Shown piece after piece: positions 402-625 of a stretch of DNA of 14,811 bases. The stretch is from a virus (Duplodnaviria > Heunggongvirae > Uroviricota > Caudoviricetes), in the IMG/VR virus record IMGVR_UViG_2534681835_000032, positions 1 to 14,811 of that record, one strand, 5' to 3'. The translations under genes and the position numbers were made by a program. Position 1 is the first letter of the stretch, and each line of letters opens with the position of its first letter. The notes beneath the pieces are model-generated. The model was not told the DNA's origin and ran no database searches. It saw only the letters and a program-made list of their open reading frames with translations.

Positions 402-506
402 TCAGTTCCCTAGTCGATCCATCAAAAACACAACCAGGCAGTAAACGCCCACAACAGCAATAACAGCCAGCGCACCTTCCATTGCCAGTGAAATATCATC
501 CGACAT
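402..506 (-). CDS. Small hydrophobic protein, 34 aa (MSDDISLAMEGALAVIAVVGVYCLVVFLMDRLGN)
   Basis: ORF below the track size cut-off; strong SD AAGGAGG 4-5 nt upstream of ATG at 506; predicted single TM segment; same strand as the neighbouring phage genes. Confidence 0.35.
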   Translation of the reverse strand: MSDDISLAMEGALAVIAVVGVYCLVVFLMDRLGN

Positions 507-541
507 ATTCCCTCCTTTGGTGTTAATCCCGGCGAACGTTT

Positions 542-625
542 TTACCCCCACCGACAAATAACATATACTAAAAAAGCGATAGCCATAGCAACGCCTGTAA
601 TTGCAAATGCTTCAGGCCAGTTCAT
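542..625 (-). CDS. Small hydrophobic protein, 27 aa (MNWPEAFAITGVAMAIAFLVYVICRWG)
   Basis: ATG at 625 overlaps the stop of the upstream DUF551 gene (ATGA overlap, suggesting translational coupling); hydrophobic core; not in the ORF track because of size. Confidence 0.3.
   Translation of the reverse strand: MNWPEAFAITGVAMAIAFLVYVICRWG

Follow-up and report, generated by a model that had tools for sequence, protein, structure and literature searches.

The window examined here is a stretch of 14,811 nucleotides (nt) of a Caudoviricetes virus (IMG/VR record IMGVR_UViG_2534681835_000032, positions 1 to 14,811), and our subject is a pair of very small open reading frames (ORFs), termed ORF-A and ORF-B, that lie at 402-625 on the minus strand, which holds every feature discussed unless stated otherwise. 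ORF-A (542-625, from the ORF list and conservation) encodes 27 amino acids (aa), MNWPEAFAITGVAMAIAFLVYVICRWG, and is unannotated; ORF-B (402-506) encodes 34 aa, MSDDISLAMEGALAVIAVVGVYCLVVFLMDRLGN, and corresponds to the database protein WP_001278450.1. Each is predicted to be a single-pass membrane microprotein. The pair had been picked out in an earlier note made from the DNA letters, and their coordinates and lengths are as described there. The window is 100% identical to Escherichia coli O111:H8 strain 8E (NZ_CP077465.1, 2266974-2281784, reverse orientation). The lambdoid prophage to which it belongs there has a Rac-like early region and is integrated next to yebY, and the window takes in its left and early parts. 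The gene order is a cro-like regulator, ydaT, replication genes, DUF1627, several small genes, DUF4014, DUF551, ORF-A, ORF-B and hokD/mok/sok. ORF-A and ORF-B are probably accessory genes carried in the early-right (nin-like) operon of this lambdoid Rac-like prophage.

Results

ORF-A is joined to the gene in front of it by an overlap of start and stop codons: its ATG (623-625) shares letters with the TGA of the DUF551 gene in the sequence CAATGA (around 622-625), the ATGA overlap that the earlier note had pointed out. A Shine-Dalgarno (SD) sequence, AGGAGG, which that note had passed over, lies 7 nt before the ATG, within the last codons of DUF551 (633-638). A start/stop overlap together with an SD inside the upstream gene is the layout of gene pairs translated by termination-reinitiation, and the sequence around ORF-A would fit this mode of translation. 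The coupled layout stands as first described, but it is not specific to DUF551. An overlap with the upstream stop codon, as ATGA or TAATG, was found in each of the nine phage and prophage contexts that were read one by one and, with few exceptions, in some 87 further loci analysed by script, and a purine-rich SD lies 6-10 nt upstream in the same nine contexts even though the upstream genes differ. At least four unrelated C-termini precede ORF-A, namely those of DUF551 proteins (‘..PLPEPPQEV[RN]Q’), of proteins ending in ‘..ISAEDVLR’, of L0139 of phage 933W (‘..NIEQKVNQ’) and of the Av-05 protein (‘..DGWNACRAAMLKKKGMNQ’), and the overlap and SD are also kept behind the upstream gene of SJ46 and in a Klebsiella phage.

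The sequence downstream of ORF-A is likewise variable, consisting of ORF-B plus hok, of hok directly, or of DUF4222 plus xis/int, and the breakpoints of mosaicism match the ends of ORF-A (H16 begins at its ATG and H31 stops at its stop codon). ORF-A behaves as the unvarying 3' end of a gene family whose members are shuffled. The proteins encoded upstream (those of Av-05 at L171, of L079, L080, L086 and L176, and of the window at 622-1170) are themselves mosaics, many of which have two segments in common, ‘ARIALASLEAEP(V/I)A’ at the N-terminus and ‘DGWNACRxAML’; the Av-05 protein terminates right past the latter and the window protein continues into its DUF551 domain. We considered whether ORF-A might be a C-terminal transmembrane (TM) tail fused to DUF551 by frameshifting, and rejected this, there being no slippery heptamer before the stop codon and ORF-A having its own ATG and SD behind unrelated genes. 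No ORF-A homologue follows the DUF551 gene yfdS in the K-12 prophage CPS-53, and K-12 small-protein surveys therefore never saw ORF-A.

ORF-A is present in 99 phage records (tblastn) and in at least 469 IMG/VR stretches (pattern scan). Copies were read directly in Stx2a_1447 (MTWPDAFAIVGVAMSIALIVFAICRWG), BP-4795, PhiR12_4 and 933W (MTWPEAFANVGTVMAVVLVVYSICRWR), in the virulent Vequintavirinae phage Av-05, in the P1-like phage-plasmid SJ46 (24 aa) and, in a looser version of 22 aa, in a Klebsiella prophage; besides 933W and BP-4795, the Shiga-toxin phages known to carry it include VT2-Sakai/Sp5 and Min27. There are 22 distinct nucleotide variants, and the length is 27 aa in almost all copies. 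Residues M1, W3, P4, A6 and G11 do not vary, position 15 is occupied only by Ala or Ser, giving a GxxxA/S motif, and the C-terminus is usually C-R-W-G, so that the consensus M-x-W-P-[DE]-A ... G11-x-x-x-[A/S]15 ... C-R-W-G is kept in lambdoid Stx phages, the P1-like phage-plasmid and the virulent Vequintavirinae phage, and is looser in Klebsiella prophages.

The pattern of substitution in ORF-A is that of a coding sequence. Against diverged copies the proportion of synonymous sites that differ (pS) is 0.6-0.8, near saturation, the proportion of non-synonymous sites that differ (pN) is 0.16-0.29, and dN/dS is 0.07-0.20; pooled pN/pS is 0.35 in frame versus about 1-2 in other frames, save that the mirroring antisense frame, which has no start codon in the window, also scores low. 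Among minor alleles 34/69 are synonymous (P about 1e-5 against an expectation of 25%), where it should be noted that the pairwise and allele-count statistics for both ORFs ignore shared ancestry. Frame, length, start, SD and stop hold at 55-70% protein identity. Two groups of variants depart from the consensus: the commonest variant in the O157-type IMG/VR loci L043-L071, MIWPEAFAITGVAIAIDFLVYVICRWG, places Asp17 in the middle of the TM helix, and in five other loci a stop at W26 shortens ORF-A to 25 aa. These may reflect either relaxed constraint in some lineages or functional variants.

ORF-A has no annotation in any of the three RefSeq genomes (including NZ_CP077465.1) and eight phage records inspected. 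In a collection of 15 billion proteins the exact window peptide forms a single-member cluster from three contigs, and scans of Pfam, NCBIfam, PHROG and PADLOC gave no family match. Among 185,579 GTDB species representatives it occurs in Escherichia and Shigella only, save for a match on an Acinetobacter contig of 369 nt, probably a contaminant, and a dubious match in a metagenome-assembled genome. Judged from this conservation, ORF-A is a widespread and selected phage gene that is almost never annotated, and we regard its existence as a gene as very probable.

ORF-B begins at an ATG at 504-506, preceded by the strong AAGGAGG SD that had been noted earlier (511-517, 4 nt before the ATG). The suggestion that such peptides are missed by annotation holds for ORF-A but fails for ORF-B, which the Prokaryotic Genome Annotation Pipeline (PGAP) calls as a 105-nt coding sequence, WP_001278450.1, in three genomes including the 100%-identical NZ_CP077465.1; the two have the same sequence and the same position relative to DUF551 and hokD, and an exact look-up returned 984 contigs. 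Moreover, all 34 residues are contained in XECs145, a prophage-borne 54-codon ORF of O157:H7 Sakai that was classed as ‘real’ and predicted to be an inner-membrane protein (Hücker et al., 2017, PMC5597208). XECs145 is ORF-B with 20 further codons upstream, its start being a rare codon within ORF-A. For ORF-B, the published footprints supply the ribosome-profiling check that the earlier note had proposed. In lysogeny broth (LB), XECs145 had an RNA level of 79 reads per kilobase per million (RPKM), a footprint RPKM of 346, a ribosome coverage value (RCV) of 4.35 and a coverage of 0.99; in brain-heart infusion (BHI) the respective values were 121, 150, 1.14 and 0.84, and under cold/osmotic stress 73.3, 1.1, 0.01 and 0.37 (PMC5597208). 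The last of these footprint and RCV figures mean that its translation nearly stops under stress. We infer that ORF-B is expressed in lysogens or in a spontaneously induced fraction of the culture.

The 34-aa ATG start is backed by the SD, the PGAP call and diverged homologues. Longer versions of 51 aa (from a TTG) and 54 aa (as in XECs145) were rejected, the extension not being kept in a second allele whose GTG start aligns with codon 6. Nested within ORF-B, in its +1 frame, an ORF of 25 aa without an SD, MIFHWQWKVRWLLLLLWAFTAWLCF, occupies 422-499 and is seen again in relatives. Its codons undergo non-synonymous changes at points where those of ORF-B change synonymously, and it is probably a by-product of ORF-B. 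A full-text literature search for the peptide strings and for WP_001278450 found no paper. ORF-B is thus already known as an annotated, translated hypothetical protein, to which we add the correct start, the second allele and a linkage to hok; XECs145 was reported with 54 codons and no assigned function, and its link to hok was not noted (PMC5597208). That ORF-B exists as a gene we consider almost certain.

Scanned with HMMER, 1.84 billion representative proteins yielded only seven close relatives of ORF-B and no distant ones. Combining tblastn with context analysis identified the second allele, (fM)LVLKCALAIAAVMAIYCLAVVLMDRLSD, of 29 aa with a GTG start and about 47% identity, which is found in phages Tritos, Evi, mEp460 and HannyBb and in 259 IMG/VR stretches. 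This Tritos-type allele retains a GGAGG SD 5-6 nt before its GTG, and has its own promoter-like element (TTGAAx-17-CATATT) and a small leader hairpin (Tritos L167 1960-2105; L168 HannyBb; L078; L181-L260); in a subset of about 17 loci the -35 is replaced. The alleles have in common the stop position, the length and a Y-C-L-x-x-x-L-M-D core. Within the window-type allele, in-frame pN/pS between close variants is 0.13-0.25, and nine nucleotide variants of the Tritos type all encode one identical peptide, 8/8 minor alleles being synonymous (P = 1.5e-5). By these substitutions, both alleles are under purifying selection. Conservation with a synonymous bias was the check on which the earlier note had staked its prediction, and both ORFs come through it with their frames kept and synonymous changes in excess.

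The neighbour of ORF-B on its downstream side is nearly always hok. For the window type, hok comes next in 47/52 contexts; for the Tritos type it lies downstream in 74/77 loci with enough flank, in 73 of them at 210-211 nt. The hok -35 follows the Tritos-type stop codon at a distance of 8 nt and no terminator intervenes, so transcripts of this allele should read into hok. The reverse does not hold: among 69 distinct hokD-like loci, roughly half are without both ORFs and a few have only remnants of ORF-B. Upstream of hok in L261, L271, L278 and L280 there is no full ORF-B, its last codons are kept (..MDHLSD* or ..ELN*), and a 22-bp palindrome described below is present or absent; these remnants indicate that recombination breakpoints fall inside ORF-B in some phages.

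In the window, ORF-B lies in a cassette bounded by an 11-nt direct repeat (CGTTTTTACCC on the plus strand, GGGTAAAAACG on the minus strand), identified by repeat analysis and alignment with 933W and 606R7. One copy (537-547) spans the ORF-A stop codon and an exact second copy lies at 362-372; together they bracket a 175-bp segment that contains the SD of ORF-B, ORF-B itself and the palindrome. In 933W and 606R7 a single copy joins the ORF-A stop directly to the hok promoter, implying that the cassette was inserted or deleted at the repeat, in either direction. The palindrome, CGATATGGGAATTCCCATATCG (372-393), is a perfect 22-bp sequence between the ORF-B stop and the hok promoter, without a spacer, with an EcoRI site at its centre and with no second occurrence in the window. 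As RNA it would fold into a hairpin (z = -3.55), and it is exact in 52/61 distinct contexts. Its role as an intrinsic terminator or a selected hairpin was rejected, since a U-tract is missing and the changes in its variants affect a single arm without compensation; it could be a protein-binding site, or a barrier to transcription or to RNA processing before hok.

Both peptides have the composition of small membrane proteins. One predicted TM helix in each had been proposed, and this is borne out by a single hydrophobic segment of 19 residues in each, with a mean Kyte-Doolittle value of 2.45 in ORF-A (residues 6-24) and 2.72 in ORF-B (residues 11-29); with lengths under 50 aa, both thus have the features of small single-pass membrane proteins. 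A scan of both strands of the 14.8 kb for ATG ORFs that encode 20-50 aa with a TM-like segment and have an SD at most 14 nt away returns ORF-A and ORF-B only, compared with a mean of 0.085 in first-order Markov random sequences, from which it follows that the observation is real and not a chance pattern.

Three functional classes had been put forward in the earlier note, namely toxins, holin-like modulators and regulators of membrane proteins. Models of Hok/Gef and other type I toxins (Pfam Hok_Gef, NCBIfam) gave no match at E <= 1 to either peptide or its diverged relatives, holin families matched neither, and scans of Pfam, NCBIfam, PHROGs and PADLOC returned weak non-specific TM matches only; the PADLOC defence models had no meaningful match to ORF-A, ORF-B, the DUF551 protein or the DUF4014 protein. 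Holins are encoded in a lysis cassette beside the endolysin and typically have 60-150 aa with a charged C-terminal tail, whereas these peptides of 27 and 34 aa have nearly uncharged tails and are encoded in the nin-like region, after the replication genes and before the DUF1133 gene. The annotated class II holin and lysozyme of a related prophage (L003) lie about 6.5 kb downstream of the position of the ORFs; the window itself ends at hok. A promoter and terminator scan of the ORF region found nothing above chance and no minus-strand promoter. On the plus strand there are sigma-70-like hexamer pairs at 482-509 (antisense to the ORF-B start) and 541-569 (antisense to the ORF-A 3' end); with three such sites found and 3.1 expected in shuffled sequence, these are not evidence of antisense RNA. 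The holin and classical type I toxin readings are therefore not supported for either ORF, and the most plausible of the three classes, by analogy, would be that of membrane-protein regulators.

The genes on either side complete the picture of the locus. The upstream gene (622-1170; ORF list, PGAP WP_000104471.1) encodes a mosaic protein of 182 aa of the EaA/Ea22 type with the DUF551 domain at residues 115-178 (Pfam, E 7.5e-21). One base upstream of its start is a gene for a DUF4014 (phrog_1832) protein of 72 aa with a central hydrophobic segment (1172-1390), such that DUF4014, ORF-A and ORF-B are three consecutive membrane-type small proteins ahead of Hok. A complete hokD/mok/sok type I toxin-antitoxin locus occupies 1-325, the window beginning exactly at the stop codon shared by mok (1-213) and hokD (1-156; ORF list, PGAP WP_000813260.1). 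The hok mRNA leader and sok antisense region (151-325) match Rfam RF01794 (sok, 108.4 bits, E 2.6e-25); this hok/sok element is the sole Rfam match in the window, with none in 402-625. The start of the match at 325 places the 5' end of the hok mRNA near this position, and reading the sequence relative to it suggests a hok promoter at 332-360, 6 nt upstream, with a -35 of TTTGCG (355-360), a 17-nt spacer and a -10 of TAGAAT (332-337). Alignment with 933W, 606R7 and Tritos shows no variation in the -10 region.

Discussion

We have described two very small prophage ORFs that share a locus with a type I toxin-antitoxin system. The interpretation that we favour, with moderate confidence, is that both are real genes for single-pass inner-membrane microproteins that act through helix-helix contact and serve as dispensable accessories of the early operon. 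According to this model, each peptide would insert as one TM helix, probably in an N-out, C-in orientation because the sole basic residue is at the C-terminal end of the helix. Each would then bind a larger host or phage membrane protein, in the manner of characterised bacterial small membrane proteins, and so alter a membrane function during early lytic growth (ORF-A and ORF-B) and in the lysogen (ORF-B). Both would be moron-like genes, and neither a holin nor a classical type I toxin.

AcrZ, MgtS, MgrB, KdpF and CydX are bacterial small inner-membrane protein regulators, members of a class that is translated and conserved. ORF-A and ORF-B resemble them in having fewer than 50 aa, one predicted TM helix, their own SD and, in ORF-A, a small-xxx-small motif (G11xxx[A/S]15). 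They differ in having no homology to any of these proteins and in being phage-borne, with a distribution limited to Escherichia and Shigella phages and near relatives. A survey of Enterobacteriaceae has described tens of thousands of conserved intergenic microprotein clusters, the hydrophobic ones being common and thought to act via protein-protein interaction (PMC11188072). ORF-A resembles the Entero67K clusters of that survey in its size range (15-70 codons), its intergenic location, its hydrophobic TM character, its purifying selection and its lack of a Pfam domain, although neither peptide was found in the parts of its supplements that were available. ORF-A is thus an unannotated new member of a well-known class of hydrophobic microproteins.

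Several observations weigh against this interpretation. The binding of larger membrane proteins is argued by analogy, and a generic role as a modulator leaves the near-exclusive linkage of ORF-B to hok unexplained. Between the two ORF-B alleles pN/pS is about 0.55, which does not discriminate between frames, and the O157 Asp17 variant together with the five W26-stop loci means that constraint on ORF-A is not absolute. The Sakai reads assigned to XECs145 may derive from several prophage copies that are nearly identical, and the ORF as published includes the 20-codon extension; ORF-A is unmatched in the supplements of the same study, which excluded ORFs under 30 aa.

The linkage to hok raises the possibility that ORF-B, and perhaps ORF-A, is functionally part of the hok/sok module, a reading that we consider unlikely but which survives best among the alternatives. 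It could take two forms. A membrane peptide might tune or neutralise Hok, providing immunity at the protein level or modulating Hok-assisted phage release, or else hok/sok expression might be set by transcription and translation that pass from ORF-B into the hok promoter. Like Hok/Gef, ORF-B is predicted to be a small single-pass inner-membrane peptide, and it lies in the same module. It is found directly upstream of the hok promoter in the great majority of loci of either type, despite the low identity of the two alleles (about 47%) and the difference in what precedes them, ORF-A in one and a promoter-like element of its own in the other. The dependence is also one-sided, hok often occurring without ORF-B and ORF-B almost never without hok, as would be expected of an immunity-type partner. 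ORF-A in turn abuts the hokW promoter in 933W and Sp5, and HokW aids the release of Sp5 after induction (PMC8621323). However, the hokD-like loci that lack both ORFs, about half of the total, and those with truncated ORF-B remnants indicate that hok works without them, and in BP-4795, Stx2a_1447, Av-05, SJ46 and a Klebsiella phage ORF-A has no hok in its vicinity. Physical linkage over about 90-245 nt would by itself hold ORF-B beside hok, and the known antidote of Hok is the Sok RNA, with no protein partner described. Unlike Hok/Gef, ORF-A and ORF-B have no family match, no mok-like overlapping frame and no recognised antisense RNA, and the window-type arrangement has no long folded leader.

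Start-stop overlaps are typical of subunits of one complex. Since such an overlap precedes ORF-A almost without exception, ORF-A could alternatively anchor the upstream mosaic EaA/Ea22-type protein in the membrane or be its dedicated partner there, with the overlap fixing their proportion. Most of the upstream proteins do belong to one mosaic family with the N-terminal motif given above, and about 75/87 loci end in DUF551. Against this, L0139 of 933W and its counterpart in 606R7 (a zinc-ribbon/coiled-coil protein), gp092 of SJ46 and the Klebsiella protein have neither DUF551 nor the N-terminal motif, YfdS of K-12 has DUF551 and is not followed by ORF-A, and the upstream proteins show no TM segment or other membrane signal. 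We think such a partnership distinctly unlikely. A bolder proposal that unites the two alternatives, and that we hold to be no less speculative, is that ORF-B is a Hok-dedicated modulator or immunity peptide and ORF-A a universal coupled TM partner of EaA/Ea22-type proteins, the two forming one hitherto unrecognised, membrane-acting module that tunes Hok-assisted prophage release or maintenance. If this were true, ORF-B would represent protein-level control of a type I toxin, where regulation is thought to be by RNA only.

It is improbable that one or both ORFs encode membrane-damaging toxins resembling those of type I systems, or peptides that time lysis. Small, very hydrophobic single-helix peptides encoded in a prophage beside a bona fide type I toxin would be candidates for such a role, the Tritos-type ORF-B has a promoter-like element and structured leader of its own, and the plus-strand site at 482-509 would yield an RNA antisense to the ORF-B start. 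However, that site is one of those found at chance level, neither Rfam nor any toxin or holin family recognises the region or the peptides, the lysis cassette of the related prophage is about 6.5 kb away, and the termini are without the clusters of basic residues seen in most type I toxins and holins. ORF-B is also well translated in growing, uninduced LB cultures, as its RCV attests. That the ORFs are non-functional, their conservation reflecting recent common descent or an element acting as DNA or RNA, is very improbable: most copies are over 95% identical, chance ORFs of this size are common (the first 2 kb contain 28 of 20 aa or more) and both the ORF-B remnants and the W26-stop variant exist, but the frame and translation signals persist in diverged copies, the synonymous excess is strong in both ORFs and both ORF-B alleles, the mirroring antisense frame cannot start in the window, ribosomes cover ORF-B, and SD-led TM ORFs are far rarer in random sequence.

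Under the interpretation that we prefer, that of membrane microproteins serving as accessories of the early operon, the locus adds two members to the large and mostly uncharacterised class of hydrophobic microproteins of bacteria and phages, and overturns nothing that is known. ORF-A is a clean example of a selected phage gene that is skipped by standard pipelines even in well-studied Shiga-toxin phages; in 933W and Sp5 it lies directly against the hokW promoter, in a locus that has been dissected experimentally without its being noticed. Deletions or clones of ‘hokW-sokW’, or of DUF551 and Ea22-type genes, may therefore unintentionally disturb it. Finally, the strict placement of ORF-B beside hok provides a testable lead on whether protein accessories exist in type I toxin modules.

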